A stretch of 64,000 nt of DNA from Calditrichia bacterium (GCA_020635035.1 JACKAO010000006.1:57583-121582), one strand, 5' to 3'. Shown: positions 3,526 through 44,280, numbered from the stretch's first letter. The notes: generated from the letters alone by a model not told the origin. Made by a program: numbers and translations.

Positions 3526-3532
3526 TATCGGA

Positions 3533-5059: not shown

Positions 5060-6013
5060 ATGAAAAAAACTATTTTAATGATACTGCTTCTGGGAACTGT
5101 GATTTTTGCAAATGAAAATGCCCGTTTTGCAGGGTCGTTTACACGTTTAGGATTAGGTGCACGTTCTATTGCCATGGGAAACACCGGTGTTGCTGCTCCC
5201 GCACGCGGCTATTCGTTTTATTATAATCCGGCTCTCGCGGGTTTTAACAATCAGAAAATAATTTCAACCGGCTACAATTTTATGTCGCTTGACCGGCATA
5301 TTTACTTTTTAACTTTCGGGATGAAAGTCCCACCGGGCGCGGGATTATCACTTGGCTGGCTGCAAAGCGGTACCGGTGAACTGCGATCTTATAATTCAAT
5401 TGGTGAAGATACCGGCGAGATAAATCATTCGGCAAATGCATTCTATGGCAGTTTCTCCCGGCAGTTTTCTGATAAGTTTTCCATCGGATTGACAATTAAG
5501 GTTTTAATGGAATTCATTAACGACGGAACAAGTGCTTTTGATTATGAATCAACCGGTGTTGGAGGGGACTTTGGGGTTTTTTACCAGGCAACGGATAAAC
5601 TTGCGATTGGAGCTGTGTACAAAGACATTGGCTCGCGTTTAAAAGCCAATACAGAAAAAATATTTGAACGCGGTGGAACGACAATTGACGATTTTCCGCG
5701 CCTTTTCAGAATAGGTGCCTTTTATAACACACCACTGGAATGGCTTAATGTTGCTTACGATTATGAACTGAGCAGCAGGGGGCAGCACGACAATCATATA
5801 GGTTTTGAAGCAATTCATGGGCGCAATCTTGCACTGCGCATGGGTATAAATATTATGGACAGCGGTTCACCCCAGAGTTATACTCAAATGACTTTTGGTA
5901 CAGGATTTGACTTTAAATTATACAAATTTGTCACTCATTTGGATTATGCTTTTATATCATCGGTCATAGATGAAGGAAGCAGTCACCTGTTTTCGTGGGA
6001 GATTTATTTGTGA
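5060..6013 (+). CDS. PorV/PorQ-like outer-membrane beta-barrel protein
   Basis: Signal peptide. N-terminal ARSIAMGNTGVA motif, alternating beta-strand pattern and a C-terminal aromatic residue. Resembles T9SS PorV/PorQ-family barrels. Confidence 0.6.
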   Translation: MKKTILMILLLGTVIFANENARFAGSFTRLGLGARSIAMGNTGVAAPARGYSFYYNPALAGFNNQKIISTGYNFMSLDRHIYFLTFGMKVPPGAGLSLGWLQSGTGELRSYNSIGEDTGEINHSANAFYGSFSRQFSDKFSIGLTIKVLMEFINDGTSAFDYESTGVGGDFGVFYQATDKLAIGAVYKDIGSRLKANTEKIFERGGTTIDDFPRLFRIGAFYNTPLEWLNVAYDYELSSRGQHDNHIGFEAIHGRNLALRMGINIMDSGSPQSYTQMTFGTGFDFKLYKFVTHLDYAFISSVIDEGSSHLFSWEIYL

Positions 6014-6074
6014 TCATTTTATAGTGTTTTATTAACTTTATTAAAAACAATCAACTTTATTGAATGAGAATCTG

Positions 6075-6971
6075 ATGTTGAAAAAACTAGTTATTTTAAG
6101 TCTTGTGCTTGTATTTAATTCACTGCAGGCGCAGTCAAATACAGGCTTTGTTTTGCTCAAAATGGATGTGGATGCCCGCGCAGCCGCATTAGCGGGGGCT
6201 TACTCCGCGGTTCCAAATGATGCATCAGCCGCCTTCTGGAATCCCGCGGGTCTTTCACTTGCAGAAAACACAACCATAAATGTAATGCATAACGATTGGT
6301 TATGGGATATATCGCACAGTTTCGCGGCAGTCCAGTTTATTCAGGGAGAACATAACCTGGCATTATCAGTAAATTATCTGCAAATCCCGGGGATCGCGAT
6401 TCGCGGAACAACACCTACTGACGAACCGGCAGGTACAAGCGAAGCATATAATTTAGCTTTGGCACTCAGTTATGCCCGGGAGTATGAAAAGGACTGGCAT
6501 ATTGGTATCAGTGTAAAATATCTGTTCGAAAAATATTATTTTGTGTCTGCACCGGGCTGGGCATTAGACCTTGGACTAATCAGAAAAAATGTTTTTGAAA
6601 ATCTCGATTGGGGGATAACACTCCAGAACATTGGAAAAATGGCAGCTCTTGATAAGCAGGAAACTCCTTTACCGCTGATGATAAGGACAGGTATTGCTTA
6701 CCAGATTCCTGAGTTGCTTGATAATAATTTACGCATTATTTCCGATCTGTTGTGGATCAAAGATGAAAAGATGTATGTAAAATTCGGTCTTGAATATGCG
6801 ATAAGCGAATACCTGGTTATTCGTTCCGGGTTGAAAAATGGAAATGAAAATCTGTTATTCACAGCCGGACTGGGAATCAATTACCAGAGTTTTCATCTGG
6901 ACTATGCTTACGCACCGTTTGAATACGATTTGGGTTCATCAAACAGGATATCTGTTGGTTTAAGCTTCTAA
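6075..6971 (+). CDS. PorV/PorQ-like outer-membrane beta-barrel protein (paralog)
   Basis: DARAAALAGAYSAV...AAFWNPAGL motif typical of the PorV/PorQ family. Ends in ...VGLSF. I prefer the ATG at 6075 (MLKKLVILS signal peptide) over the TTG at 6060. Confidence 0.6.
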   Translation: MLKKLVILSLVLVFNSLQAQSNTGFVLLKMDVDARAAALAGAYSAVPNDASAAFWNPAGLSLAENTTINVMHNDWLWDISHSFAAVQFIQGEHNLALSVNYLQIPGIAIRGTTPTDEPAGTSEAYNLALALSYAREYEKDWHIGISVKYLFEKYYFVSAPGWALDLGLIRKNVFENLDWGITLQNIGKMAALDKQETPLPLMIRTGIAYQIPELLDNNLRIISDLLWIKDEKMYVKFGLEYAISEYLVIRSGLKNGNENLLFTAGLGINYQSFHLDYAYAPFEYDLGSSNRISVGLSF

Positions 6972-12365: not shown

Positions 12366-12403
12366 CCGATTCCATTTTAGGGCTGATGGAATCGGTTTTT
12401 TTT
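12366..12403 (+). terminator. rho-independent terminator of rpsF-rpsR-rplI
   Basis: Perfect 10-bp stem CCGATTCCAT/ATGGAATCGG (12366-12375 / 12386-12395), 10-nt loop, then TTTTTTTT. Confidence 0.75.
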
Positions 12404-12406
12404 AAT

Positions 12407-14851
12407 ATGCAATTTGCAGAAGTCGTTTTCAATCTTCCACTTAATCATTCCTTTACATACGGTATCCCGCCAGTTTACAGTTTTTTAACTCCCGGCTACA
12501 GAGTTCTTGTTCCGTTTGGCAAAAGAGTCATTACCGGCGTTGTTACGGCAATCAAAGAAAAAAGTGAGTTTAAAAGCGTTAAAGATATTATCGATGTATT
12601 AGATGAAAAAGCTCTTATAAAACCGCAAATGCTTGAGTTAACAAAGTGGATATCTGAGTACTATCTGTCTTCCTGGGGCCAGGCTGTTCAGCTTGCATTA
12701 CCAAAAGGACTTGATGAATTTGAATCGGAAAGAATACACATTGTTGAAGAAAAAGCAGACGCTGATTTATCAGAAAAACAACGGGAATTATATTTTTTGA
12801 TAGCCGATAATCCAGGCCAGTCAAAGACATATTACCGCAAAAAATTCGGCACATCTTCATTTTACAGTGTTTTAAATATCCTGAAAAACAAAAACCTGGT
12901 CTATGCCGAAGTTGAAAAAAAGTCAGCAAGTGTAGGTACTTTGTTACGTGATTTTGTAATTGTTCCGAAAGATTATAACTCTATTAAATCAAAATCCCCT
13001 GATTTTTTAAAATATACAAATAAACGCCCGGAAATTGATGCATTCCTGCAACTGCATTCAGGATCAAATATACTTGTTAGTGACTTCTTAAAGCATACAA
13101 AGATGGCACGTGCAACCTTACAGAAAATGCATCAATATAATATAATTAAGATTGAACAATTGGCAGTTGACCGAAAACCCGAAGTGAGTTTTTCGGAAAA
13201 AAAACAGGATTTTATTCTGGTACCGGAACAATTGGCAGTTTTGGAAAAGCTTAAAGATGCAGTCGATAAAAACAGCTATAAATCATTTTTACTGCATGGC
13301 ATAACCGGCAGCGGGAAAACCGTAGTATATATTGAAATCCTTAAAAAAATAATCAGCCTTGGGAAGAGTGCTGTCATTTTAATTCCTGAAATTGCTTTAA
13401 CACCCCAAACTGTATCCCGTTTTGAAGCGGCGTTTAATGAAGAAATCGCTGTTTTTCACAGCAAGATGTCAGCAGGGCAGCGTTATGATGCTTGGATGGC
13501 TTGTTACAAAGGGCAGGTTAAAATAGTAATTGGTCCCCGGTCAGCGCTGTTTGCTCCTCTTGAAAATCTGGGTCTGATTGTTGTGGATGAAGAACATGAG
13601 CAAAGTTATAAACAAACAGAATCTGCTCCGTTATATCATGCGCGTGATGTTGCACTTTATTGGGCTAAAATGCATGAAGCTGTTGTTGTTTTAGGATCTG
13701 CAACGCCAAGTTTTGAGAGCTATTATAATGCCCAAAACCAGCGTCATGAACTTTTAGAAATAAAAAACCGTGCAACAAAAGCTTTACTACCTGAAGTCCA
13801 TTTGGTGGATATGCGAAAGAGCAGGGGCAGAGATACGCAAAATCATGTCTTTTCTCCATTACTTCTGGATAAAATGAAATTTACTTTATCTGCAGGTGAA
13901 CAAGTTATTTTGATGCAGAACAGGCGTGGATTTGCATCGTTTCAGCAATGTATGAACTGCGGGTTTATTCCAAAATGCACGGAATGTGAAGTTAGCCTGA
14001 CTTATCACACATTTGATAATAAACTAAGGTGTCATTATTGTGGATTAACTATATCTGCTTCAGTACAATGTGCCAATTGCGGTAGTGATGATATTGATAA
14101 CAAAGGTATTGGTACCCAAAGAATTCAGGATGAATTGGCAAGTCATTTTCCTGACGCAAACGTGCTTAGGATGGATCAGGATACAACCCGTGGAAAAAAC
14201 GCCCATGACCAGCTTTTGTCTGCCTTTCGTGAGCATAAAGCAGATATTTTGCTGGGGACTCAAATGATCGCAAAGGGGCTTGATTTTGAAAACGTAACTT
14301 TGGTTGGAGTAATCTCTGCCGATGTAGGGCTTGGGATCCCCGATTTTCGTTCCGGAGAACGCATCTTCCAGCTTCTATCGCAGGTTGCAGGCCGGTCCGG
14401 GAGGGGAAGTAAACCAGGGCAGGTGGTAATACAGACCTATCAAATCGAGCATTATGCAATTCAGTTTGCAAAGGATCATGATTACCGGGGCTTTTATTCA
14501 AATGAAATAAAACACCGTGAAGTTTATAATTATCCACCCTTTAACAGGATGATTCAGATAACCGTTTCTTCAGCAAATATTTCTGATGCAATTTCAAGGG
14601 CACGGGATATTGCTATCCCCATTCGGAAAAATGGTGTCTATATTTGTGACGTGATAGGACCGGCACCGGCTACAATTTCGAAATTAAAAAATCTTTACAG
14701 ATGGCAAATTAGTCTTAAAATAAATCGCAAATATGATCCTTCAGGGATAAAAACAAAAGAATTATTACAAAATGTGCTTAAACCATATACATCAGCAAAA
14801 AACAATAATATCTTTTTAAATGTCGATGTTGACCCTGCTTTTGGTACTTAG
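12407..14851 (+). CDS. priA: primosomal protein N' (replication restart helicase PriA)
   Basis: GITGSGKT Walker A, VVDEEH DExH box, and a double CxxC zinc-binding insert (CMNCG...CTEC...CHYCG...CANCG). The listed ATG at 12386 lies inside the terminator stem, so the ATG at 12407 is preferred. Confidence 0.9.
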   Translation: MQFAEVVFNLPLNHSFTYGIPPVYSFLTPGYRVLVPFGKRVITGVVTAIKEKSEFKSVKDIIDVLDEKALIKPQMLELTKWISEYYLSSWGQAVQLALPKGLDEFESERIHIVEEKADADLSEKQRELYFLIADNPGQSKTYYRKKFGTSSFYSVLNILKNKNLVYAEVEKKSASVGTLLRDFVIVPKDYNSIKSKSPDFLKYTNKRPEIDAFLQLHSGSNILVSDFLKHTKMARATLQKMHQYNIIKIEQLAVDRKPEVSFSEKKQDFILVPEQLAVLEKLKDAVDKNSYKSFLLHGITGSGKTVVYIEILKKIISLGKSAVILIPEIALTPQTVSRFEAAFNEEIAVFHSKMSAGQRYDAWMACYKGQVKIVIGPRSALFAPLENLGLIVVDEEHEQSYKQTESAPLYHARDVALYWAKMHEAVVVLGSATPSFESYYNAQNQRHELLEIKNRATKALLPEVHLVDMRKSRGRDTQNHVFSPLLLDKMKFTLSAGEQVILMQNRRGFASFQQCMNCGFIPKCTECEVSLTYHTFDNKLRCHYCGLTISASVQCANCGSDDIDNKGIGTQRIQDELASHFPDANVLRMDQDTTRGKNAHDQLLSAFREHKADILLGTQMIAKGLDFENVTLVGVISADVGLGIPDFRSGERIFQLLSQVAGRSGRGSKPGQVVIQTYQIEHYAIQFAKDHDYRGFYSNEIKHREVYNYPPFNRMIQITVSSANISDAISRARDIAIPIRKNGVYICDVIGPAPATISKLKNLYRWQISLKINRKYDPSGIKTKELLQNVLKPYTSAKNNNIFLNVDVDPAFGT

Positions 14852-14916: not shown

Positions 14917-16155
14917 ATGAGCAAGTATCTAGAACAAAAAAAAGAATCCATTGTACGTGTAAACCGAATCATCGATAATTTACAATCGGTTCAGGATGTA
15001 AAAGAGATTCTTGAAAAGTATAAATTTAAGCATGATAAGCTTTTAAAGCAGTATGAAAAGCTAAGCCGTGTTTTTGAGTTTCATAAGGGCATTATTCAGA
15101 ATATTTCCAGCGGTATTATTACAATAGATCTTTCCGGGAATATTACTTTTATGAATTCTACAGCTTTGGAAATGATTGCCAACAAATCGGAAAATATGCT
15201 TGGCAAATCAATGGAGATGTTATTTGCTGACCGGGAAGAAGGACATCTTATTATCAATCAATTGCTGAAGCTTAATAAAATGTTTGAAAGCCGGGAAGCA
15301 ACCCTGGTTGATATTAATGGCGAAATAATCCCGATTGGATTCAGCACGACGCCGTTGCGTGAAAATAATTCTGACGGGACTACCGGGTATATATTTATTT
15401 TCAGGGATATCCGGGAGTTGATAAACTTCAGGAAGCAAATGGAACGCATGGATCGACTTGCCACTCTTGGTGAACTCTCGGCAGGAATTGCCCATGAAAT
15501 ACGTAATCCTTTAGCCGGGATTAAAACATCTGCACAGGTGCTGGAAGAAAGTTTTAGCCCGGGTGATTTCAGAGCACAATTGATTTCACGCATAGTTAAA
15601 GAAATCGATCGCAGCAATAAGCTGTTGCAGCGCTTTTTTAATTTTGCAAAACCAAGCCGTCCAAAACCGGGGTTTCATCAATTGCAGAATATTGTTGACG
15701 GGGTTTATTTGCTACTCGCGCCGAAAATGGCCAAGCGTAAAATTAAATTTCATACTTCCTTTGACGAACATTTACCGTCCATCTATATTGATGAAAGCCA
15801 GTTCGAGCAGGTAATTCTTAACCTTTTTCTTAATGCGATTGATGCAATGCCTGATGGCGGTGATTTGAATGTAAGTGCGGTATTTGACAAATCCATAATC
15901 CTTAATGAAGCACCGGATAACCCCGGTGCAATCATTATAGCTGTTTCGGATACAGGCAGGGGAATATCACCTGAAAAAATTGAGAAAATATTTAATCCGT
16001 TTTATACTTCTAAAAGTGATGGCGTCGGATTGGGACTATCAATTAGTTCACGTCTGCTGGAAGAGAATCAATCGCGTATTGAAGTTCAGTCGGAGCCGCA
16101 AAAAGGGGCAACATTTACAATTTACCTTCCACATGTGAAAAATAATCAGGAGTGA
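14917..16155 (+). CDS. soluble PAS-domain sensor histidine kinase
   Basis: No TM segment. N-terminal coiled coil plus PAS. HisKA H-box AHEIRNPL. HATPase_c N, G1 and G2 boxes (NLFLNAIDAM, DTGRGI, GVGLGLSI). Confidence 0.85.
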   Translation: MSKYLEQKKESIVRVNRIIDNLQSVQDVKEILEKYKFKHDKLLKQYEKLSRVFEFHKGIIQNISSGIITIDLSGNITFMNSTALEMIANKSENMLGKSMEMLFADREEGHLIINQLLKLNKMFESREATLVDINGEIIPIGFSTTPLRENNSDGTTGYIFIFRDIRELINFRKQMERMDRLATLGELSAGIAHEIRNPLAGIKTSAQVLEESFSPGDFRAQLISRIVKEIDRSNKLLQRFFNFAKPSRPKPGFHQLQNIVDGVYLLLAPKMAKRKIKFHTSFDEHLPSIYIDESQFEQVILNLFLNAIDAMPDGGDLNVSAVFDKSIILNEAPDNPGAIIIAVSDTGRGISPEKIEKIFNPFYTSKSDGVGLGLSISSRLLEENQSRIEVQSEPQKGATFTIYLPHVKNNQE

Positions 16156-16157
16156 GC

Positions 16158-16523
16158 ATGGCAAGGCGTCTACTTATTGTTGATGATGAAGAGACATTAA
16201 CCTTCAGTTTGTATCAGAGTTTTATATTATCTAAGAAAGACTATGAAGTTGCTACAGCATCTTCTGGGGAAGAAGCTCTGGATAAAATGAAGGAAGAACC
16301 ATATGATCTGGTTATTACAGATATTTTTATGGGGGGGATGAGCGGTATTGAACTGCTTAAAATTGTAAAAGACGAGTATCCGCAAACAGAAGTAATTGTA
16401 ATGACTGCCTATGGTTCAAACTCCAAAAAGGATGAAGTGGAAGAACTGGGTGCAAAACATTATGTAGAAAAGCCTTTCGAAATGAAAAATCTTCGTGAAA
16501 TGGTCTTTGGAATTTTAGGATAG
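16158..16523 (+). CDS. stand-alone response-regulator receiver (CheY-like)
   Basis: LLIVDDEE, LVITDIFM, VIVMTAYG and YVEKPF receiver signature. The ATG at 16158 lies 5 nt after AGGAG. Coupled to the kinase stop. Confidence 0.85.
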   Translation: MARRLLIVDDEETLTFSLYQSFILSKKDYEVATASSGEEALDKMKEEPYDLVITDIFMGGMSGIELLKIVKDEYPQTEVIVMTAYGSNSKKDEVEELGAKHYVEKPFEMKNLREMVFGILG

Positions 16524-16525
16524 TC

Positions 16526-17176
16526 ATGGCGTTAATTGGAAATTTAAAGGATATAAAACTTCCAAGCCTAATACAGTTAAATTGTATGGAGCGCAACAAT
16601 GCTAAACTTACTATTGAACGTAGTGGTAAATTTGGTTTTATTTACTTTGAAGGTGGTCAGGTAACCCATGCCGAATTTGAACCATATCTTGGTGAAGAAG
16701 CTGTATTTAAATTGTTAAGCTTACCGGAAGCAAGGTTTAAAGTTGAAAGTGATGTTAAACCACCTGTTCGTACGATTCAGACAAACTGGAGCAATCTGCT
16801 TTTAGATGGATTAAATAAACTGGACCATTCCCAGGATGAAGCGGAAAACCAGTATTACAGGCTATTTGAAAGATTGATGACAATTAAAGGGGCGGTATCT
16901 GTAAGTTTAATAAGTGAAGACGGACATTTGATTGATCAGGGGCAGCATCCCGATAGTGTTAAAAAAGATCCCAACGCTGCTTTTATAATGTTACAGGCGA
17001 AAAAGATGGCAAAAACACTGGATCTGGATAATCCTGAGTTCGTCAGCATCTTTAGCGGGCAACAGCGATACATCATAATTCTATTTCATCAGCACTATAT
17101 TTTAATGCAAATGGATAAAAAGGTTAAAAGCGAAGTCGTTATGCCGCTTATAAAACAGGCCATAGGGAAAAAATGA
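16526..17176 (+). CDS. DUF4388 (PATAN-like) domain protein with C-terminal roadblock/LC7-like domain
   Basis: N-terminus GNL..I.LPSLIQL......AKLTIE..G..G.IYFEGGQV.HAE.....GEEAVFKLL matches the DUF4388 pattern as I recall it. C-terminal half IKGAVSVSLISEDGHLI...FVSIFSG..RYIIILF is roadblock-like. Confidence 0.6.
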   Translation: MALIGNLKDIKLPSLIQLNCMERNNAKLTIERSGKFGFIYFEGGQVTHAEFEPYLGEEAVFKLLSLPEARFKVESDVKPPVRTIQTNWSNLLLDGLNKLDHSQDEAENQYYRLFERLMTIKGAVSVSLISEDGHLIDQGQHPDSVKKDPNAAFIMLQAKKMAKTLDLDNPEFVSIFSGQQRYIIILFHQHYILMQMDKKVKSEVVMPLIKQAIGKK

Positions 17177-17628
17177 ATAAAGATACTGTTATGATTGAAC
17201 GCTGGCTGACGGAAATAAATACTCTTCCCGGGGTTGAAACTGTCTTTATTGCTTCCGGCAGGGGCTCTGTTTTATATAATGCCGGGAAACTGAAATTATC
17301 GTCAAAAGAGCTGGAAGATATTGCTTTACGTGTATTGCGCATCGGGGCATTATTCAATGAAAAAGACGAAAACGTTTCAGAAATTGAATTATTTTGGAAA
17401 AATGTTTTTATTATTAGTAAAATCTCCAACAACATTTTATTAACAACAATTTGCCAGAATCCGAAAATTTTGCCTTTGTTGCGAATAACGCTTAACGTCA
17501 GTTTATCGCATCTTTTGCAAGAAAAGAAAATCATAAAGCAGGCAAAAAATCACGCTACTGATAAAACACTTGTTCTAAGAAAAGGCAAATTTGATGAAGA
17601 CGAGCTAAGTCTTTTATCAAGCATTTAG
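17173..17628 (+). CDS. roadblock/LC7-like protein (divergent)
   Basis: LPGVETVFIASGRGSVLY...IELFWKNVFIISKI follows the roadblock alpha-beta-alpha pattern. ATGA overlap with the upstream gene. Confidence 0.45.
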   Translation: MNKDTVMIERWLTEINTLPGVETVFIASGRGSVLYNAGKLKLSSKELEDIALRVLRIGALFNEKDENVSEIELFWKNVFIISKISNNILLTTICQNPKILPLLRITLNVSLSHLLQEKKIIKQAKNHATDKTLVLRKGKFDEDELSLLSSI

Positions 17629-17668
17629 AGCTGAGATTCACAAATAAGTATCCCATACAGGATTTTAA

Positions 17669-18160
17669 TTGGCCAATAGTTTAAACGGCAGGTTTCTATC
17701 GCAACCCTATGTGGTTTATAAAAAATCAGATATAAAATCTGCTTCAGGATTAAATTTGCGTTCAGCAGAATGGATGGTCCTTACCCAGGTAAATGGCAGC
17801 CAGTCGATACAAGAGATTGCTTCTGTGGCTGCTATGCAGGTAGCTGATGTTGTTAAGATTATGAGTAATCTTTTTCAATTGGGTTTGATTGAAGTTTTTA
17901 AAACCGAAAAAAAAGAAGAAAACCTTTTAGGAGCATCATTTTTTAATAATATGGAAAGTGTTTTAGTAAAAATTATTGGACCGGTGGCACCCTTTGTTAT
18001 AGAAGATGTTTTATCTGATATAAATCTAAGCCGCACAAAATACCCATCAGAGAGAGTTGCAGAACTTATTGAACTTATATCAGACGAGATTCATGATGAA
18101 GTAAAAAAGATAAAATTTCAATCAGAAATGCTGGAGTTTATCAAAAGGGAATTAATCTGA
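17669..18160 (+). CDS. hypothetical protein with winged-helix-like segment (DUF742/CvnC-like pattern)
   Basis: TTG start. The segment EWMVLTQVNGSQSIQEIASVAAMQVADVVKIMSNLFQLGLIEV has the helix-turn-helix spacing seen in DUF742-type conservon proteins. This is weak, pattern-level recognition only. Confidence 0.35.
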   Translation: MANSLNGRFLSQPYVVYKKSDIKSASGLNLRSAEWMVLTQVNGSQSIQEIASVAAMQVADVVKIMSNLFQLGLIEVFKTEKKEENLLGASFFNNMESVLVKIIGPVAPFVIEDVLSDINLSRTKYPSERVAELIELISDEIHDEVKKIKFQSEMLEFIKRELI

Positions 18161-18161
18161 T

Positions 18162-18905
18162 ATGTTCAGTTTACGGTGGAAAATCAGTGGTATTTTAGTA
18201 TTCAGTAACCTTGTTCTGGGTACCTTATTAGTACTTATTATCAATAACACCATTTCAGGAATTATTGAAAAAGAAATGATTGAGCGCGGAAGAACACTGG
18301 CAACAAATCTGGCGAATTATTCATCAGAACAAATTTTAGGTGAAGATTTTATTGGGTTAAAACAAACTATCTCAAATGCATTAAGCTTTGAAAGTGTAGA
18401 ATATATTCTCATCCAGGACAGTGAAAATAATATAATTGCGAAAACGTTTAATGATGCAATCCCTGCAGAACTTAATGCCATACTTCAAAACACAGATGAA
18501 ACCGTTCTGAATAATATCGAAATACAGAAAGAATCGGGAGCTGTTAAATGCTGCGATATCGTAGTGCCTGTGCAGGAAGGTTACCTAGGGTATATCAGGG
18601 TTGGTATGAAGCAACAATATATTGAAGATACTGTTTATGATATAAATATTTTAATGATTAGTATAATTAGCGGAATAACATTACTTGGCATAATAGTTGT
18701 GTTAATATTAGCAAACAAAATAATTAGTCCGATAATTTATTTAACTCAAAAAGCTGACGATATAAGCCAAGGAAAACTTGATGAACCCGTTTCAGTTGAC
18801 ACAAAAGACGAAATTCAGCATCTTGGTGAAGCTCTTGACAGACTGAGAGAGAGTGTTCGTATAGCTCTGGACAGACTTAAAAAAAGACAAACAACGCGCA
18901 TATAA
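18162..18905 (+). CDS. membrane sensor with extracytoplasmic domain and HAMP domain, no output domain
   Basis: TM1 (ILVFSNLVLGTLLVLIINN), about 140-aa external domain, TM2 (ISIISGITLLGIIVVLILA), then HAMP (PIIYLTQKADDISQGKLDEPV...DEIQHLGEALDRL). The protein ends about 20 aa after the HAMP domain. Confidence 0.7.
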   Translation: MFSLRWKISGILVFSNLVLGTLLVLIINNTISGIIEKEMIERGRTLATNLANYSSEQILGEDFIGLKQTISNALSFESVEYILIQDSENNIIAKTFNDAIPAELNAILQNTDETVLNNIEIQKESGAVKCCDIVVPVQEGYLGYIRVGMKQQYIEDTVYDINILMISIISGITLLGIIVVLILANKIISPIIYLTQKADDISQGKLDEPVSVDTKDEIQHLGEALDRLRESVRIALDRLKKRQTTRI

Positions 18906-18925
18906 AATAACAGTGGAGTATTTTT

Positions 18926-19438
18926 ATGGTACAAACAAGAAAGCTTAAGGATGGCAGCCGTCAGGTTATCCTGAACGGTAAGCAGTACGATGGTATTACC
19001 AAAGTTCTAACAGAGCTGGCAACAAAAACAAAAGCTTCTGCAATCCTGTTTGCTGATATGAGCGGTCAGTTAATTAGTCAGCGTGGGAATACCGAAAACA
19101 TGAATACAACCGTTCTTTCTGCACTGGCAGCCAGCGATTTTGCCGCTACATCCGAAATGGCCAAACTTGTGGGTGAAGAAGCAAAGTTTAAACTTCTTTT
19201 TCATGAAGGAGAGAAAAGGAATGTTTATCTCTCTAATGTTGGCGACAATTTTTTTCTTGTTGTTGTTTTTGATGTCAGCGTTACATTAGGATTAATTCGT
19301 ATCTATACAAAGAAAGCGATTGAAGATTTATCAGCTATTTTGGATGATGAGTCCGGAAATCAGCCAGACGATGAAAAAATAATTGATTCTGATTTCAGCA
19401 GTCTGCTTGGCGATGCATTAGACGATACATTTAAATAA
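18926..19438 (+). CDS. mglB: roadblock/LC7 protein, MglB-like (putative GTPase-activating partner)
   Basis: AILFADMSGQLIS...LAASDFAATSEMAKLVG...FLVVVFD roadblock pattern. Lies immediately upstream of the mglA-like gene. Confidence 0.7.
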   Translation: MVQTRKLKDGSRQVILNGKQYDGITKVLTELATKTKASAILFADMSGQLISQRGNTENMNTTVLSALAASDFAATSEMAKLVGEEAKFKLLFHEGEKRNVYLSNVGDNFFLVVVFDVSVTLGLIRIYTKKAIEDLSAILDDESGNQPDDEKIIDSDFSSLLGDALDDTFK

Positions 19439-19464
19439 CAGTAAATATTAAAACGAGGCGGATA

Positions 19465-20049
19465 ATGTTTATAAATTGGGCATTACAGGAAATAAATCTG
19501 AAGATTGTCTACTACGGTCCCGGTATGAGCGGAAAAACTACGAATCTTGAATACATCCATTCCAAGCTCGATCCCTCGCTGACCGGAGAATTGGTTTCTC
19601 TTAAGACAAAGGAAGACAGGACTATATTCTTCGATTTTATGCAAATTGAAGTAGGAAAAATAAAAGGTAAAAAACCAAAATTTAATTTATACACGGTTCC
19701 CGGCCAGGTCTACTACGCTTCCAGCCGTAAAGTTATTCTTAATGGTGTTGATGGTATTGTTTTCGTAGCTGATTCGCAACCACATCGTATGGAAGCAAAT
19801 ATCGAAACGTTGCTTGACCTGGAAAGTAATTTAAAAGCTGACGGGCATACTTTAGAGAATTTTCCCTGGGTGATTCAGTATAACAAACGGGACTTACCGG
19901 GTGCTGAAGCAATTGATGTTCTTCAGAAAAAACTTAACTTTTTTGATGTTCCGCATTTTGAAGGTGTTGCTGTTAAGGGAGATGGTGTTTTTAATACATT
20001 GAAATCAACTATCAATCTCGTTGTTCAGCACGTTCAGAATCAGCTTTAG
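19465..20049 (+). CDS. mglA: MglA-like Ras-superfamily small GTPase
   Basis: KIVYYGPGMSGKTTNL P-loop, TVPGQ (G3 with catalytic Gln) and NKRDL (G4). The 194-aa length matches MglA. Confidence 0.85.
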   Translation: MFINWALQEINLKIVYYGPGMSGKTTNLEYIHSKLDPSLTGELVSLKTKEDRTIFFDFMQIEVGKIKGKKPKFNLYTVPGQVYYASSRKVILNGVDGIVFVADSQPHRMEANIETLLDLESNLKADGHTLENFPWVIQYNKRDLPGAEAIDVLQKKLNFFDVPHFEGVAVKGDGVFNTLKSTINLVVQHVQNQL

Positions 20050-20088: not shown

Positions 20089-20131
20089 TATCCCCGTTGT
20101 TTTTATATAAGCAATGGGGATATTAATTTTT
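20089..20131 (+). terminator. rho-independent terminator after mglA operon
   Basis: About 11-bp stem TATCCCCGTTG / CAATGGGGATA (one G:U pair), 12-nt loop, then a T-rich tail TATTAATTTTT. Confidence 0.5.
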
Positions 20132-20199
20132 CAGAATCTGACCTTCCAGATTGGGAGCTTGCCATCAAATCTCAAAGCAATAATTACAATCCAAAAGAA

Positions 20200-21450
20200 G
20201 TGTTCGCATGGACATTGTATGATTTTGCAAATTCTGCCTTTACTACCCTTGTTGTAACATTCATTTACAGTACCTATTTCACAAAATCTATTGCTCTGGA
20301 TGAAATTAGCGGAACTGTGCTTTGGTCTAGGGGGATAACAATTTCTGCAATTCTTATAGCTGTTTTCTCGCCAATAATGGGAATTATTGCCGACAAATCT
20401 GATTTAAGAAAACCTTTTCTTGTAATCATGACTCTTGTCTCAGTTTCTGCAACAACCGCTTTATATTTTGTGCTTCCCGGGCAAACCATTGAAGCACTTG
20501 CTATCTTTATTGTTGCAAATTTTGCTTTTGAAATGGGTATGGTTTTTTATAATGCTTATCTGCCAGACATAGCACCTCCTGATAAGATTGGCAGAATTTC
20601 AGGTTATGGCTGGTCGCTTGGATACGCAGGAGGGCTTTTATGCTTGCTAGTCGCACTTTTTGGCTTCGTTAACCCGGAAATTCCATGGTTTGGTTTTGCA
20701 AAAGAAATTGGTGAAAACATACGTGCAACAAATTTACTGGTTGCTGCATGGTTTGGACTATTTAGCATTCCTGCATTTATTTGGATACGAAAAAGCAGTA
20801 GAGCAAAAAGTGCAGTTAAACTGCAGAGTATACCACTCAATGATCTGATAATTACAATAAAATCAATTGCCCGCTATAAACAAATCATCAGGTTATTAAT
20901 TGCACGAATTTTTTATAATGATGGTTTAATTACAATTTTCGCTTTCGGGGGGATTTATGCAGCGGGTACATTCAACTTTTCATTTGAAGAAATAATAGTA
21001 TTCGGAATCGTACTCAATGTTACTGCCGGATTGGGTGCATTTATTCTTGGTTTTACAGATGATAAACTAGGCGGTAAAAATACAGTTCAGATCAGTAATA
21101 TTGGTCTCTTAGTGGCGACAATTCTTGCCGTTGCAGCTCCGGATAAAACCATTTTCTGGATTGCAGGAATTCTTGTCGGGATATTTTCCGGTCCCAATCA
21201 GGCCGCCAGCCGTTCTCTAATGGGTAGGCTTGTACCAAAAGACAAAGCAAATGAGTTTTATGGCTTTTATGCGTTCTCGGGTAAAGCTACTACTTTTGCA
21301 GGACCGGTATTATTTGGCATAATGACTGAATTATTTAACTCGCAACGTTTGGGTGTGGCTGTGATTATTCTTTTCTTTCTTACAGGTGCCATTTTACTTC
21401 AATTTGTTAATGAAAAATCAGGTATAGCTGAAGCTTCAAAAAAATTATAG
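20200..21450 (+). CDS. MFS transporter, UMF1 (Atg22-like) family
   Basis: The (W)TLYDFANSAF N-terminal signature and about 12 TM helices. GTG start as listed; see findings for the start-site uncertainty. Confidence 0.7.
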   Translation: MFAWTLYDFANSAFTTLVVTFIYSTYFTKSIALDEISGTVLWSRGITISAILIAVFSPIMGIIADKSDLRKPFLVIMTLVSVSATTALYFVLPGQTIEALAIFIVANFAFEMGMVFYNAYLPDIAPPDKIGRISGYGWSLGYAGGLLCLLVALFGFVNPEIPWFGFAKEIGENIRATNLLVAAWFGLFSIPAFIWIRKSSRAKSAVKLQSIPLNDLIITIKSIARYKQIIRLLIARIFYNDGLITIFAFGGIYAAGTFNFSFEEIIVFGIVLNVTAGLGAFILGFTDDKLGGKNTVQISNIGLLVATILAVAAPDKTIFWIAGILVGIFSGPNQAASRSLMGRLVPKDKANEFYGFYAFSGKATTFAGPVLFGIMTELFNSQRLGVAVIILFFLTGAILLQFVNEKSGIAEASKKL

Positions 21451-21598
21451 ATTTCCTGCTTATATGTGGACACATTATCCATGCCACATTCAAAAATTCT
21501 TGTTTTATATAAGAAAAAAAATAAAAGTCTATTTTTTAAAAAACTTAAACTATTTCTTATATTAGACATGTTTGGCTTTTGAAAACTAATTTAAAAAA

Positions 21599-22543
21599 AT
21601 GATTAAAAATAAATTGTTAAGCTTTTTGAAAATAGGTATATTCCCGGCTCTGTTTTTTGTTCTTTGTTATAGCAATATCTATGCAAAAAAAGCCCAATTT
21701 GTGTATGATAAAAAGTACAATTTTTTGTATGAAGATTCTGATAGTTTACTGGTTAAAAATCTGATTGAAAAAATCCGGAAGCCGCTCTCTGAAATCGAGA
21801 ATTTTTTTGATTTGAGAACACAGGCAGTTACAAATATTTATTTGACCAGGTCTGAGTCAGAATTTCAATCGTATGCACAAACCGGATTTCCTGAGTGGTC
21901 ACAGGCAGTTGCACTTCTGCAGCAAAAGACAATTATTCTGCGGATTGCAAATGGTGATGAATTAAACAGGGTGCCACAGGTTTTACTCCATGAGCTGGTC
22001 CATATCATTCTTGGAATAAAATTTCCTGATCTTGATATTCCAACATGGATCCACGAAGGCATAGCTCAAAAATTGAGTAATGAAAGCTTGAACATGGATG
22101 AACAGGTGCTGATTGCGAATGCGTTGTTTAGTGATCGGTTATACGCATTAGCTGATCTTGATTCAATGTTAAGTTTTTCCAGCGTTAAGGCAAGGACAGG
22201 GTATGCATTATCACGATCCGCGATTGATTTCTTTTTGGATCGTTATACAAAAAAAGATCTTTTGGATATTTTAAGCCAACTGCATCGAAAAAAATCTATG
22301 GATCAGGCTTTCAGTGAAGTTACCGGTCGAGATTTTGTTGATTTCCAGGTGGGTTGGTTTGCTTATATTGATGAGAAGTATAAGTGGATGATTTTATTAA
22401 ATACATCCAATCTTATATGGCTTATTTTCATAATTTTGATTGTTTTAGCGTATATTCGTGTAAAATTAAAAAATAAAAAAACTATTCGCTCATGGCCTGA
22501 ACAGGGCATTGATGACATAGACAAACAAGTTAACCATTTTTAG
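21599..22543 (+). CDS. peptidase MA-like zinc metalloprotease with C-terminal TM anchor
   Basis: Signal/TM at the N-terminus. HELVH (HExxH) plus downstream HEGIAQ. TM helix LIWLIFIILIVLAYI near the C-terminus. Confidence 0.55.
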   Translation: MIKNKLLSFLKIGIFPALFFVLCYSNIYAKKAQFVYDKKYNFLYEDSDSLLVKNLIEKIRKPLSEIENFFDLRTQAVTNIYLTRSESEFQSYAQTGFPEWSQAVALLQQKTIILRIANGDELNRVPQVLLHELVHIILGIKFPDLDIPTWIHEGIAQKLSNESLNMDEQVLIANALFSDRLYALADLDSMLSFSSVKARTGYALSRSAIDFFLDRYTKKDLLDILSQLHRKKSMDQAFSEVTGRDFVDFQVGWFAYIDEKYKWMILLNTSNLIWLIFIILIVLAYIRVKLKNKKTIRSWPEQGIDDIDKQVNHF

Positions 22544-27833: not shown

Positions 27834-28457
27834 ATGGGAGGATTGGTCGAGCTTTTCAATGATGGCGGAAATTTTATGTGGCCAATATTAGTGTTACTTG
27901 TTGTTGGTTTGGCATTCGTAATTGAACGTTTTGTTACTTTAACAAGAGCATCAGTAAATACACGTAAATTTTTAGCACGCTTGCATTCAGCATTGCACGA
28001 AGGCGGTATCGAAGGTGCTGCAGCTGAATGTGAAAAAACACCTGGTCCTGTTGCATCTATTTTGCATGCAGGATTGTCAAGAGCAGATAAAGGATTGCAA
28101 AATGTTGAAAAGGCAATAACAAATGCCGGTTCAATAGAAATGGCTTTCCTTGAAAGAGGTATGGCAGTACTTTCAACTGTAATTGTACTTGCGCCGATGC
28201 TTGGATTTACCGGAACGGTTTGGGGGATGATCGCCGCTTTCGATGCTATCAAAACAAAAAATGATATTTCACCTGCAGTAGTTGCCGGTGGTATTTCTCA
28301 GGCATTGTTAACAACACTTTTTGGGTTGGTTGTTGCTATGCTTATCCAGGTTTTCTTTAACTATTTTACATCCAAAATTGATAAACTTATTATTGATATG
28401 GAAGAAAGTTCTGTAGAATTGATGGATGCTTTGGTTGATCTGGAAGAAAAAAAATAA
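27834..28457 (+). CDS. exbB: MotA/TolQ/ExbB proton-channel protein
   Basis: Three TM helices. LGFTGTVWGMI and GGISQALLTTLFGL motifs. Confidence 0.85.
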   Translation: MGGLVELFNDGGNFMWPILVLLVVGLAFVIERFVTLTRASVNTRKFLARLHSALHEGGIEGAAAECEKTPGPVASILHAGLSRADKGLQNVEKAITNAGSIEMAFLERGMAVLSTVIVLAPMLGFTGTVWGMIAAFDAIKTKNDISPAVVAGGISQALLTTLFGLVVAMLIQVFFNYFTSKIDKLIIDMEESSVELMDALVDLEEKK

Positions 28458-28473
28458 ATAACCGGGATATATT

Positions 28474-28881
28474 ATGATCATTGGCAAGAAAAAAGAAAAA
28501 GATGTTGAAATACCATCCGCATCATTAGCAGATATAGTATTCCTGCTTTTGATTTTTTTCCTGGTAACAACATCGATTGATACTGAGAAAGGTTTAGACC
28601 TTGTGTTGCCGCCCCCGGGAGATACTGAAATAAAAATCCCTAAGAAAAATATTGCAAACCTGTTCATAAATGCCAGTGGCCAGGCGATGCTTGATAATGA
28701 AGTAATAGAAGTTCGTGAAATATCTAAAATTATTAAAGATAAATTGTTTGAAAACCCACTTCTTATTGTTTCATTAAAAACACACAAGGATTCAGAATAT
28801 GATGTTTACATCAAAGTACTGGATCAGTTAAAAAAGGCGGATGCAAAGAGAATTTCACTGGCTGAACCCGATGAAGAATAA
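28474..28881 (+). CDS. exbD: ExbD/TolR biopolymer transport protein
   Basis: 135 aa. N-terminal SLADIVFLLLIFFLVT TM motif. Confidence 0.8.
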   Translation: MIIGKKKEKDVEIPSASLADIVFLLLIFFLVTTSIDTEKGLDLVLPPPGDTEIKIPKKNIANLFINASGQAMLDNEVIEVREISKIIKDKLFENPLLIVSLKTHKDSEYDVYIKVLDQLKKADAKRISLAEPDEE

Positions 28882-28896
28882 CGAGGCATAAAGACA

Positions 28897-29316
28897 ATGC
28901 AATTTAAAAAGAAAAGTAAAATTAAATTAGCAATTCCTACTGCGTCCATGCCGGATATCATTTTCATGTTGTTAATATTTTTCATGGTTGCAACAGTAAT
29001 GCGAACCTATTCAGGTTTAAAAGTAAAGTTACCTGATGCAGCAAAAATTCAGAAACTTGATGTTTCGAAACGCCACATCTCAACAATCTGGGTTGATAAA
29101 GATAACAACATTGTAATGGATGATATCACCGTAAAAGATGTGAAGAATCTTAGAAACCTTGCATATCAAAAACGAGTGGACGATCCTCAACTTGTCATTT
29201 CTTTAAAAGGGGATCAATTAGCAAAGATGGGCGTTATTAATGATGTACATCAGGAGTTGCGTAAAGGAAGTGCTCTGAACGTAAATTATTCAGCAATGCC
29301 ATCAGGAGAGTTTTAA
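28897..29316 (+). CDS. exbD: ExbD/TolR biopolymer transport protein (second copy)
   Basis: 139 aa. SMPDIIFMLLIFFMV TM motif. Confidence 0.8.
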   Translation: MQFKKKSKIKLAIPTASMPDIIFMLLIFFMVATVMRTYSGLKVKLPDAAKIQKLDVSKRHISTIWVDKDNNIVMDDITVKDVKNLRNLAYQKRVDDPQLVISLKGDQLAKMGVINDVHQELRKGSALNVNYSAMPSGEF

Positions 29317-29946
29317 ATGAAGTCTATTGAAAAGACAGCAGACGCTGATTTAAGGCTAAAATATCAAAAAACACTGGAGTTATCAGCGGCAGTAGCAGTG
29401 CTTTTATTAACAGTTTTGTTCTTTTCATTTCAAAAATATGAAGGATCAATTGTTCTGCCTGAACAACCAAAGCTTGTTATTGAAAGTATTGAGATTCCAC
29501 CAACACAGCAATTCCAAAAACCGCCGCCACCATCCAGACCATCTATCCCCGTTGAATCTGAAGATGAAGATTTGCTGGATGACGTAACAATTGAAGAAAC
29601 CGAAATTGATTTAGGTGAAGTTTTCGAGGCACCGCCTCCTCCTCCTGAAGAAGATGAAGTATTTGAATTTTTTGCAGTTTCAGAAAAACCGGTTTTAAAG
29701 CATAAGGAAACTCCAACTTATCCTGACCTTGCAAGAAGAGCAGGAATTGAAGGACGGGTTACAGTTATGGTTACTATTTCAGAAACTGGTGATGTTCTTG
29801 ATGCTAAAATTTTAAAATCTGTTCCAATGCTGGATGAAGCAGCACTTGTTGCCGCAAAAAAATGTAAATTTAAACCGGCTAAACAAAGAGACAGGTTTGT
29901 AAAAGTAAAAATGTCAATTCCTTTTGATTTTAGATTAAAAGGTTAG
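29317..29946 (+). CDS. tonB: TonB-family energy transducer
   Basis: N-terminal TM, Pro-rich spacer (KPPPPSRPSIP, PPPPPEE), C-terminal TonB domain (YPDLARRAGIEGRV...F.PA...). Confidence 0.8.
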   Translation: MKSIEKTADADLRLKYQKTLELSAAVAVLLLTVLFFSFQKYEGSIVLPEQPKLVIESIEIPPTQQFQKPPPPSRPSIPVESEDEDLLDDVTIEETEIDLGEVFEAPPPPPEEDEVFEFFAVSEKPVLKHKETPTYPDLARRAGIEGRVTVMVTISETGDVLDAKILKSVPMLDEAALVAAKKCKFKPAKQRDRFVKVKMSIPFDFRLKG

Positions 29947-34414: not shown

Positions 34415-34429
34415 GCGGAGAAATTGAAA

Positions 34430-35593: not shown

Positions 35594-35619
35594 ATCCTTA
35601 TAATTCAAAGACACTAATT

Positions 35620-37721: not shown

Positions 37722-37731
37722 TGGGGACGAA

Positions 37732-44273: not shown

Positions 44274-44280
44274 GAATTTT

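Follow-up and report, generated by a model that had tools for sequence, protein, structure and literature searches.

An eight-gene operon of a Calditrichota bacterium joining a two-component pair and a HAMP-terminal receptor to PATAN, roadblock and MglB/MglA proteins

We describe a real eight-gene chromosomal operon of a Calditrichota bacterium, located in a 64-kb stretch of DNA that is referred to here as the window, in which the MglA/MglB polarity switch is joined to a histidine kinase pair and an output-less membrane receptor. We propose, with a probability of about 0.6, that two sensory inputs meet on PATAN/roadblock adaptors that would set the GTP-bound state of MglA and hence the polarity of type IV pili. 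All the parts of the operon were identified and are intact in sequence, catalytic residues included.

Composition of the operon

Eight co-directional ORFs occupy the + strand between 14917 and 20049, all of them where an earlier reading of this DNA from its sequence alone (the sequence-only reading) had placed them:

14917..16155, + strand: g1, soluble histidine kinase of 412 aa with PAS (~58-167), HisKA (184-246) and HATPase_c (292-406) domains
16152..16523, + strand: g2, single-domain CheY-like receiver, 123 aa (Response_reg 9e-29)
16526..17176, + strand: g3, PATAN/DUF4388 domain (aa 5-102) followed by a divergent, putatively roadblock-like domain (aa ~112-216), from Pfam and HMMs
17173..17628, + strand: g4, stand-alone protein with a predicted roadblock/LC7 fold, 151 aa (AlphaFold2, Foldseek, hhalign)
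17669..18160, + strand: g5, acidic winged helix (aa ~28-80) and C-terminal four-helix DUF8082 domain (aa ~86-163), from PF26309 and AlphaFold2
18162..18905, + strand: g6, membrane receptor with the layout TM1, periplasmic sCache_3_2-like domain, TM2, HAMP, tail, stop (Pfam, hydropathy)
18926..19438, + strand: g7, roadblock protein assigned by homology to MglB, predicted to be GTPase-activating, with an acidic C-terminal helix region (Pfam, NCBIfam, PDB)
19465..20049, + strand: g8, small GTPase assigned by PDB matches and motifs to group-1 MglA, 194 aa
20089..20132, + strand: intrinsic terminator at the end of the operon (stem of 14 pairs, loop of 6 nt, then the T-run TTAATTTTTC)

The intergenic distances from g1 to g8 are -4, +2, -4, +40, +1, +20 and +26 nt, the first of these being the 4-nt overlap of g1 and g2, and this spacing suggests that the eight genes are co-transcribed. 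A terminator search between 14.5 and 20.5 kb returned 5 hits, against 4.2 expected from shuffled sequences; the stem-loop at 20089 is the sole strong one, and the 4 others are short and at the level of the shuffles. These results agree with the tight array of co-directional genes and the terminator seen in the sequence-only reading. Upstream, priA ends 65 nt before the operon with no terminator between them, and so the transcription unit may exceed eight genes. The neighbors are housekeeping genes, and no pilus, flagellar or gliding gene was found in the window. The sequence-only reading had judged the source to be neither myxobacterial nor actinobacterial, which fits a Calditrichota organism, and its gene-by-gene domain inventory of g1-g8 proved right by Pfam, NCBIfam, PDB and fold evidence, with a weaker call for the C-terminal part of g3.

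The first two genes are predicted to constitute a classical two-component system. Pfam identifies PAS (3e-14), HisKA (9e-15) and HATPase_c (1e-24) domains in g1, and neither a hydrophobic segment (by hydropathy) nor a HAMP domain (by Pfam) was detected in it. Its phospho-histidine H193, N-box N306 and G1-box D345 are invariant in 60 orthologs, and the same holds for D11/D12, the phospho-acceptor D57, T85 and K107 of g2 in 67 orthologs. The H-box, ATP-binding boxes and receiver Asp/Thr/Lys are thus all conserved, in keeping with the complete pair that had been recognized earlier. If translation of g2 starts at the ATG at 16158, the protein would have 121 aa.

The DUF4388 domain that had been recognized in g3 was recovered with the PATAN profile (PF14332) at 2e-20, scoring 73.3 bits against a gathering cut-off of 25, and in orthologs at 6e-23 and 1e-19; the match skips about 20 profile positions, corresponding to a PATAN domain without the helical insertion. 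The C-terminal part of g3 matches Robl_LC7 at 3e-3, which is under the curated cut-off. In hhalign comparisons its family aligned with that of g4 at an E-value of 1e-6 over 32 columns and with that of MglB only at 7e-3, and its HMM matched the bona fide MglB proteins of three Desulfobacterota-type loci (see below) at 3e-6 to 2e-5. We regard this domain as roadblock-like with weak to moderate, not strong, confidence. For g4, a Pfam search gave no hit. Its AlphaFold2 model (pLDDT 81) displays an alpha-beta-beta-alpha-beta-beta-beta-alpha topology, with a C-terminal tail disordered beyond about aa 130, and the top Foldseek matches of this model are LAMTOR2/p14, an archaeal Roadblock protein and MglB (E 7e-7 to 1e-4). 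There were 131 PDB hits at E <= 1e-3 and, among the matches listed, nearly all are roadblock, LAMTOR or MglB proteins; hhalign also relates g4 to the MglB family (E 4e-5). Together, the model and the alignments assign a predicted roadblock fold to g4.

The last two genes encode the predicted GTPase switch. g7 matches Robl_LC7 at 7e-12, the NCBIfam MglB model at 3e-23, which is under the equivalog cut-off of 200 bits of that model, and the Myxococcus xanthus MglB structure at 3e-24 over residues 11-169, C-terminal segment included. This homology, together with its position 26 nt upstream of mglA, identifies g7 as MglB, in agreement with the earlier MglB-like call, and a GAP role is predicted for it. 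Of the three roadblock domains counted in the sequence-only reading, those of g7 (by Pfam) and g4 (by fold) stand, and that of g3 is weakly to moderately indicated. g8 aligns with M. xanthus MglA at 3e-67 over 188 residues and with Thermus thermophilus MglA at 3e-61, and contains the GPGMSGKT, TVPGQ and NKRD motifs at residues 18, 77 and 140. Group-1 MglA proteins are marked by an intrinsic arginine finger beside the threonine of G2 and by TVPGQ as their G3 motif (PMC4316618); in g8 and its orthologs, 77 sequences in all, there is no variation at R52 (equivalent to R53 of M. xanthus), T53, T77-V-P-G-Q81 or N140-K-R-D. On alignment, the MglA-like GTPase of the earlier reading is thus placed in group 1.

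Conservation of the gene set and the DUF8082-receptor pair

Across 67 species-level Calditrichota-type genomes the genes follow one another as g2-g3-(extra)-g4-g5-g6-g7-g8, in three variants, which is far beyond chance; the conservation in relatives that the sequence-only reading had raised as a question is thus seen across Calditrichota. Median identity across these loci is 33-41% for g3-g6, 84% for MglB (range 73-93%) and 88% for MglA (range 81-96%). The persistence of linkage despite such divergence of g3-g6 indicates selection on the linkage itself rather than recent shared ancestry. In one form of the operon, variant C, the kinase gene is missing and the g5 ortholog bears an additional N-terminal PATAN domain (DUF4388 7e-17), which physically ties DUF8082 to the PATAN theme.

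A corresponding gene set was found at three Desulfobacterota-type loci (L095, L098 and L100). These encode MglB, an MglA (43% identical, with TVPGQ), DUF8082 and a HAMP receptor, together with the PATAN-like protein of ~340 aa seen in variant B (HMM 1e-18 to 1e-22), a REC-PATAN protein and a g4-type roadblock protein (2e-13; g4 orthologs in Desulfobacterota-type clusters match at 2e-13 to 8e-10), with the repertoire, MglBA included, assembled in an order other than that of Calditrichota. Receiver and PATAN are fused only at these three loci and are separate genes at all Calditrichota loci. At each of the three, the gene set adjoins a gene for a ~798-aa MshEN+T2SSE PilB-like ATPase, and in L100 also one for a prepilin peptidase (PilD). 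This neighborhood link to PilB, missed in the sequence-only reading, furnishes a concrete candidate for the output that it had called unknown.

The least familiar components are g5 and g6. The winged-helix-like character earlier ascribed to g5 agrees with a profile match to MarR in the PDB (1e-3), and its own Pfam search returned weak winged-helix matches only, with the ortholog in L077 matching HTH_27, HTH_5 and MarR_2 at about 2e-4 to 6e-4. A marginal structure match to Nprl2/Nprl3 (E ~1e-2, TM 0.38; AlphaFold2 model pLDDT 86) probably reflects a generic winged helix. DUF8082, an uncharacterized domain that the sequence-only reading missed, is annotated in Pfam as PF26309 on g5 and nearly all its homologs (precomputed matches), and displays an invariant GPxA motif and F150. 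In g6, hydrophobic segments at residues 6-36 (TM1) and 157-196 (with TM2 inside it) precede a HAMP domain (183-233, 7e-10); the sCache_3_2 match of the sensor region is weak (1e-3) in g6 itself and above the cut-off (3e-7) in the L077 ortholog. Pfam found no output domain beyond HAMP, the stop following about 14 residues later after a conserved basic tail, which agrees with the sensor-HAMP protein without output described earlier. All 76 of 76 orthologs are equally short (242-265 aa). A methyl-accepting chemotaxis protein was considered and rejected for g6 on account of this early end, its retention in the orthologs and the lack of an MCPsignal match.

Searches with g5 identified a family of 1334 representatives at E <= 1e-3. 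In all 11 independent contexts inspected outside Calditrichota, a small sample chosen from these representatives by length of contig, the DUF8082 gene lies directly 5' of a same-strand gene for a HAMP-ending receptor. The pairing thus recurs across several phyla. The sensor domains of these receptors vary (dCache, sCache_3_2, Zn-ribbon, Tll0287-like), while their TM2-HAMP-tail regions match g6 at E-values of 1e-18 to 1e-24 and share with it the C-terminal signature DEIG-L-AI-R[ML]Q[DE]S[LV]R--I-RL[RK][RK]R, after which comes the stop. In other phyla the pair stands alone, at L087, L091, L093 and L099, and the g3-g6 core is present without MglAB, at L094, L096 and L097, neither of which was apparent to the sequence-only reading. 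DUF8082 also occurs without the winged helix, with three copies in L091 and, in L090, as a fusion with a BY-kinase-like ParA protein.

A signaling model and its alternatives

We envisage three modules, namely the kinase/receiver pair g1-g2, the core g3-g6 and the MglB-MglA switch g7-g8, with contacts, direction of signaling and a type IV pilus output in Calditrichota that we infer from the above observations. The cytoplasmic PAS kinase would phosphorylate g2, and the HAMP domain and conserved basic tail of g6 would touch the DUF8082 domain of g5 directly, conveying a conformational signal. g5, with its acidic winged helix serving protein contacts rather than DNA binding, could then engage a platform of roadblock proteins, made up of g3, g4 and perhaps MglB, on which phosphorylated g2 may also act, in the manner of FrzX/FrzZ and RomR in Myxococcus. 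This platform would adjust the GAP activity of MglB or the recruitment of MglA-GTP, and MglA-GTP with PATAN might direct or activate the motor that extends type IV pili at one of the cell poles. A Synechocystis PATAN domain binds PilB1 and PilC's N-terminal domain (bioRxiv 10.1101/2021.06.11.447907), and group-1 MglA genes occasionally lie near PATAN genes (PMC4316618). The link to PilB draws on these cyanobacterial two-hybrid data and on the three Desulfobacterota-type loci, which belong to another phylum.

The same signaling could instead serve to place a different machine of the pole or envelope, for instance the flagellum or the T9SS, or the sites of division or growth. Caldithrix abyssi possesses a type IV pilus cluster, but it also has a full set of flagellar genes, and its motility is of the tumbling kind (PMC5317091), so that pili are a candidate output machine in Calditrichota; pil genes are lacking from the window and from the conserved Calditrichota neighborhood, and Myxococcus MglA also governs a non-pilus gliding machine (PMC9481161). 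Nevertheless, we consider a non-pilus output unlikely, given that experiments so far tie PATAN to PilB/PilC, that the orthologous Desulfobacterota set abuts PilB-like and PilD genes and that C. abyssi lacks Bacteroidetes-type gliding genes (PMC5317091). A transcriptional pathway, with g5 as a DNA-binding regulator set by the HAMP receptor and MglA/roadblock proteins, would resemble the group-3 REC-wHTH systems. The winged helix with its MarR-like matches, and the wHTH outputs predicted for group-3 MglA by Wuichet and Sogaard-Andersen (PMC4316618), are compatible with such a role. However, the winged helix carries a net charge of -2 in g5 and a median of -4 in the family, with a median of -2 for the putative recognition helix; furthermore, the conserved partner of DUF8082 where the winged helix is missing is a receptor and not DNA, and variant C fuses g5 to PATAN, a protein-binding domain. 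We therefore hold DNA binding to be quite improbable.

That the three modules share only a location and a transcript, and are functionally uncoupled, seems to us very improbable. It would account for the lone receptor pairs, the cores without MglAB and the kinase-less variant C, but not readily for linkage held over deep divergence in 67 genomes or for the re-assembly of the same repertoire in another order in Desulfobacterota; moreover, roadblock proteins are established partners of MglA-type GTPases (PMC4316618). Convergence of two inputs on MglA through PATAN/roadblock adaptors remains our preferred reading.

Relationship to known systems and implications

As in Myxococcus and Thermus, g8 aligns end to end with MglA and retains the arginine finger, TVPGQ and NKRD, g7 aligns with MglB through the C-terminal helix region, and the mglB-mglA order is that of Myxococcus; an accessory MglC-like roadblock protein and a RomR/FrzX/FrzZ-like receiver are shared in principle. 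In Myxococcus, however, RomR/RomX, RomY, MglC and Frz are encoded away from mglBA, and these partners comprise neither a HAMP receptor nor a DUF8082 or PATAN-roadblock protein, whereas in Calditrichota the inputs are encoded together with mglBA in one operon and come from other families.

The likeness to actinobacterial conservons (CvnA-D; Mfp), which had led the sequence-only reading to call the locus conservon-like, is thematic, in that both group a roadblock protein and an MglA-family GTPase in one operon with a histidine kinase and a small protein of helix-turn-helix type. Membership was rejected. CvnD is a group-2 MglA with GTPGQ and no arginine (PMC4316618), whereas g8 has TVPGQ and R52; g1 is a soluble PAS kinase with a cognate receiver, not a CvnA-type membrane HAMP kinase, and kinase domains are absent from g6, the protein with HAMP; PATAN, DUF8082 and the separate receptor are additions. 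A DUF742 profile, suggested in that reading, gave no hit to g5 at E <= 0.1, and the L077 ortholog reached only E 0.13 (cut-off 27 bits).

With the cyanobacterial PatA-type (PATAN-REC) regulators of pilus phototaxis, PixG, PixE and LsiR, the operon shares the combination of PATAN with a CheY-like receiver that answers to a sensory system, and its Desulfobacterota relatives share the REC-PATAN fusion beside a PilB-like ATPase. A PatA-type identity was rejected for Calditrichota, where PATAN and receiver are not in one polypeptide; PATAN is joined there to the roadblock-like domain, that of g3 is without the helical insertion, and the input is not of the CheA/MCP chemotaxis type. Like eukaryotic Ragulator/Rag and GATOR1, the operon encodes several roadblock-fold proteins with a small GTPase, and the closeness of g4 to LAMTOR2/p14 is taken at the level of fold, with no claim of homology.

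More tentatively, and we would sooner bet against this than for it, DUF8082 proteins and HAMP-terminal receptors may form an unrecognized, phosphorylation-free transmembrane pair, in which HAMP and tail dock onto DUF8082 and feed MglA via PATAN/roadblock proteins toward type IV pilus motors. If this is true, bacteria of several phyla would possess a receptor-to-roadblock-to-GTPase pathway, and the signaling target would be explained for at least one class of HAMP receptors that lack an output domain.

The eight-gene operon and its products

The sequence-only reading had described positions 14917-20049 as a co-directional eight-gene run with a closing terminator. This was confirmed: the interval holds eight ORFs (g1 to g8 in transcription order), all on the plus strand, with successive spacings of -4, +2, -4, +40, +1, +20 and +26 nt, and a 14-pair stem-loop with a T-run lies 3' of g8. 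The remaining terminator-like matches, including those inside g1, g4 and g5, are short and no commoner than in shuffled sequence. The gene spacing suggests co-transcription of g1 to g8. The end of priA is separated from the start of g1 by 65 nt, and given that no terminator lies between them the transcription unit could begin further upstream. The flanking genes also border the operon in many Calditrichota genomes, which places it in a stable housekeeping neighborhood and not in an island; GC content around it is ~36-39%, inside the span of ~34-44% seen over the whole window.

Features of the operon and its flanks
12386-14851: priA, upstream flank
14917-20049 (+): g1 to g8
g1: PAS-HisKA-HATPase_c kinase with no hydrophobic segment
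g2: single receiver domain (9e-29)
g3: N-terminal DUF4388/PATAN (2e-20), C-terminal Robl_LC7 (3e-3, sub-threshold)
g4: no Pfam match; roadblock topology in AlphaFold2 model (pLDDT 81)
g5: winged helix, then four-helix domain (AlphaFold2 pLDDT 86)
g6: two transmembrane segments flanking a periplasmic domain of ~120 residues
g7: MglB (3e-24 against Myxococcus xanthus MglB, C-terminal helix region included)
g8: MglA (3e-67 against M. xanthus MglA)
20089-20132: stem-loop and T-run
20200-22543: Atg22-like MFS transporter and Peptidase_MA_2 protein, downstream flank

Residues H193, N306 and D345 of the kinase, D11, D12, D57, T85 and K107 of the receiver, and G20, K24, T25, R52, T53, TVPGQ81 and NKRD of g8 are intact and invariant among relatives. 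The intrinsic arginine finger of g8, R52, corresponds to R53 of the M. xanthus protein, and judged from its sequence g8 falls into group 1 of MglA as defined by Wuichet and Sogaard-Andersen (PMC4316618). The MglB/MglA identity proposed for the last two genes was borne out. Foldseek hits for the g4 model include LAMTOR2/p14, MglB and Roadblock proteins of archaea (E 7e-7 to 1e-4), and aligning the family profiles of g4 and MglB gives E 4e-5. The earlier inventory of a two-component pair, a PATAN-roadblock protein and a second roadblock protein was upheld by Pfam and, for g4, by AlphaFold2 and Foldseek, the Robl_LC7 match of g3 being sub-threshold. When g3 and the g4 and g5 profiles were searched against PDB sequences, nothing specific emerged past weak MarR-type winged-helix matches.

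The second domain of g5 is PF26309/DUF8082 in precomputed Pfam; its assignment as DUF742, the CvnC domain, was rejected, as DUF742 was undetected in g5 or its ortholog. The winged helix is acidic (median net charge -4, and -2 for the putative recognition helix), which argues, indirectly, for protein contacts over DNA binding. A likeness to Nprl2/Nprl3 of GATOR1/SEAC (Foldseek E ~1e-2, TM 0.38) was too weak and was left out, since it probably reflects the winged helix only. The periplasmic domain of g6 resembles sCache_3_2, weakly in the window protein and above the curated cut-off in the ortholog at L077 (L-numbers denote loci in other genomes compared with the window operon). It is followed by a HAMP domain, and the protein ends 14 residues on.

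No motility genes were found in the 64-kb window, and Rfam matches across it were confined to two tRNAs, and riboswitches and sRNAs therefore play no part. ExbB/ExbD genes 8 kb downstream of the operon were considered as an Agl-like gliding motor and dismissed, as they form a standard TonB cluster that is unlinked in relatives. Pfam searches at 1e-5 gave no match for four ORFs of 383, 317, 303 and 397 aa (2374-3525, 5060-6971, 35620-36813).

Other features of the window
2374-3525: 383-aa ORF, adjoining a BNR/sortilin-repeat protein gene (3491-5017)
27834-29946: consecutive ExbB, ExbD, ExbD and TonB_C genes of a standard cluster that energises TonB
33584-38484 (+): five genes for an LPP20-like lipoprotein, a TPR and SLH-domain protein, a 397-aa protein without Pfam match, a CsgG-like channel (6e-35) and a FecR-domain protein; perhaps a system for CsgG-type secretion or anchoring that includes an S-layer-homology component
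43197-44273 (+) and 44281-45039 (-): convergent pair where gene orientation flips from plus to minus (~44200-44300), coinciding with the cumulative GC skew peak; skew is positive again after ~58 kb; ambiguous, explicable by a local strand switch or by proximity to a replication terminus

Conservation and variants in Calditrichota

Identical copies of the MglA occur on metagenome contigs bearing the same operon. Scanning one genome per species gave 80 loci with an MglA 81-96% identical, nearly all labelled Calditrichota, Calditrichia or Caldithrix. Conservation of gene order in relatives had earlier been proposed as a check on the operon, and mapping by tblastn and ORFs recovered the order receiver, PATAN-roadblock, (extra gene), roadblock, wHTH-DUF8082, HAMP receptor, MglB, MglA in essentially all of the 67 loci with contigs reaching from the receiver gene to mglA. 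Median identity to the window proteins is 88% for MglA and 84% for MglB, but 33-41% for g3 to g6; given that the order is nevertheless kept, the linkage has survived deep divergence of the accessory genes.

Three forms of the operon were distinguished. Variant A has eight genes, as in the window. Variant B (23 loci) carries an extra gene between g3 and g4 for a weakly PATAN-like protein of ~340 aa. Variant C (7 loci), found only among Bacteroidota-labelled MAGs, lacks the kinase, has an MglA ~82% identical, and encodes its g5 ortholog as a 266-aa PATAN-wHTH-DUF8082 fusion (DUF4388 7e-17). The extra protein of variant B (~330-345 aa, with a faint PATAN match) is encoded in a third of Calditrichota operons, at L009 4661-5674 and at 22 other loci. 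Several MAGs labelled Caldisericaceae, Deltaproteobacteria or Bacteroidota (L032, L057, L073, L075-L085) carry the same operon with MglA 81-90% identical, and are either close Calditrichota relatives or mislabelled or contaminated bins.

DUF8082 and receptors ending at HAMP beyond the phylum

In word-indexed homolog searches, the queries g4, g5 and a diverse g5 profile returned Calditrichota relatives only. When the g5 family was used in an exhaustive profile search, it gave 1334 representatives at E <= 1e-3 (456 at <= 1e-10), mainly of two sizes, ~155 aa (wHTH-DUF8082) and ~263 aa (PATAN-wHTH-DUF8082). In all 11 non-Calditrichota contexts inspected, which are independent and hand-picked and not a census, the DUF8082 gene is immediately followed on the same strand by a sensor ending at HAMP.

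DUF8082 genes and the genes downstream of them
L087: wHTH-DUF8082; dCache-HAMP
L090: BY-kinase-like Wzz/ParA protein with two DUF8082 copies; sCache_3_2-HAMP
L091: protein with three DUF8082 copies; Zn-ribbon-HAMP
L093: PATAN-DUF8082; Zn-ribbon-HAMP
L094, L096, L097: PATAN-wHTH-DUF8082; HAMP
L099: two pairs, one of each size; dCache-HAMP and Tll0287-like-HAMP
L095, L098, L100: wHTH-DUF8082; Zn-ribbon/(dCache)-HAMP
L086: wHTH-DUF8082; contig cut, next gene opening with the same Zn-ribbon

The TM2-HAMP-tail region of all these receptors was matched (1e-18 to 1e-24) by an HMM built from the g6 family of Calditrichota. They share the tail DEIG-L-AI-R[ML]Q[DE]S[LV]R--I-RL[RK][RK]R, and most end within a few residues of it, the L091 receptor having ~27 further residues. 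The consistent adjacency and the common TM2-HAMP-tail indicate that g5 and g6 represent a self-standing, multi-phylum gene pair, in which the sensor domain is interchangeable while the HAMP-tail and DUF8082 are constant. The simplest reading is that the HAMP/tail of the receptor would signal directly to DUF8082.

At L087, L090, L091, L093, L094, L096, L097 and L099 these pairs lie far from any mglA. The three copies at L091 are in tandem in a 349-aa protein, and the Wzz/GNVR-ParA fusion at L090 lies within a polysaccharide-synthesis cluster. Given such locations and odd architectures, the pair may feed outputs besides GTPases. Low-complexity ORFs with a repeated SLRACGARPS motif, 3' of the HAMP receptor gene at L096 (10843-12158) and L097 (10843-11409), probably represent repeat elements between genes that were miscalled as proteins.

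A gene-neighborhood link to pilus motors and the proposed wiring

Genes for a PATAN-roadblock protein (276 aa), a g4-type roadblock (162 aa), PATAN-wHTH-DUF8082 and a HAMP receptor occur together at L094, L096 and L097 without MglAB nearby; g3 to g6 are therefore a stand-alone core. A further arrangement is seen at L095, L098 and L100, the DUF8082 protein of L098 being named from Desulfosalsimonadaceae and Desulfobacteraceae MAGs: MglB, MglA (43% identical to g8, with DRT and TVPGQ), a ~245-aa protein, wHTH-DUF8082, the HAMP receptor, a ~330-344-aa protein, REC-PATAN, a g4-type roadblock (2e-13 to 8e-10) and a ~798-aa ATPase. The ~330-344-aa proteins (L095 10921-11907, L098 10875-11909, L100 10858-11850) are orthologs of the variant-B extra protein (HMM 1e-18 to 1e-22), and the ATPase is MshEN+T2SSE, of PilB/MshE type; at L100 a prepilin peptidase lies just upstream. 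This makes the Calditrichota operon a rearranged form of a gene set that has physical linkage with a type IV pilus motor in another phylum. In Synechocystis PatA-type regulators the PATAN domain binds the N-terminal portion of PilB1 as well as PilC's N-terminal domain, and is enough to reverse phototaxis (10.1101/2021.06.11.447907), and Caldithrix abyssi possesses a type IV pilus cluster along with flagellar genes but lacks Bacteroidetes-type gliding genes (PMC5317091); the PilB1/PilC binding and the pilus cluster both fit a pilus-motor output.

We propose that two inputs would converge on a roadblock/PATAN platform of g3 and g4, perhaps with MglB: one from the cytoplasmic PAS kinase through the phosphorylated receiver, the other from the periplasmic Cache receptor through DUF8082. 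The platform would set MglB GAP activity or MglA-GTP recruitment, and thereby the polarity of pilus assembly. By analogy, the receiver may act like FrzX/FrzZ and RomR, and the extra roadblocks like Myxococcus MglC and RomY-assisted MglB (PMC9481161, PMC4316618). We give this overall wiring a probability of roughly 0.6; our confidence in the parts list and its conservation is much higher.

The closest characterized system is the MglAB module of M. xanthus and Thermus, to which g7 and g8 belong. The comparison with conservons drawn earlier holds as a thematic analogy but not as membership: of the three defining features tested, the locus has neither the group-2 GTPase nor the membrane HAMP kinase, and DUF742 was undetected, so it is not a conservon. 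Nor is it of PatA type, because REC and PATAN, joined in one protein there, are separate here; g6, lacking the MCP signalling domain, is not a chemoreceptor. A link between PATAN genes and mglA/mglB was noted earlier at low resolution (PMC4316618, citing Makarova et al. 2006). In the searchable literature we found no mention of DUF8082 and no description of a HAMP/DUF8082/PATAN/Mgl cluster, the conserved eight-gene Calditrichota operon, the DUF8082/HAMP-terminal receptor pair, the g4-type roadblock and ~340-aa families, or the recurrence of the gene set beside PilB.

MglA/MglB are the paradigm of GTPase-driven bacterial cell polarity and, to our knowledge, their upstream inputs are known in Myxococcus only, where the partner genes are scattered. 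Here one conserved operon encodes putative inputs, namely a kinase with its receiver and a membrane receptor that binds a ligand, and provides a wiring diagram that is compact and open to test, from a phylum little studied so far. In Desulfobacterota a distinct g4-type roadblock family and the ~340-aa PATAN-like family accompany MglAB and a PilB-like ATPase, which provides a hypothesis for how PATAN proteins join GTPase switches to pilus motors. The tie between the uncharacterized DUF8082 (~1300 representatives) and a distinct class of receptors ending at HAMP is a by-product that may outweigh the main finding: it suggests concretely what 'output-less' HAMP receptors might do, and a new receptor-adaptor pair, a plausible extension, would if true be of broader interest.
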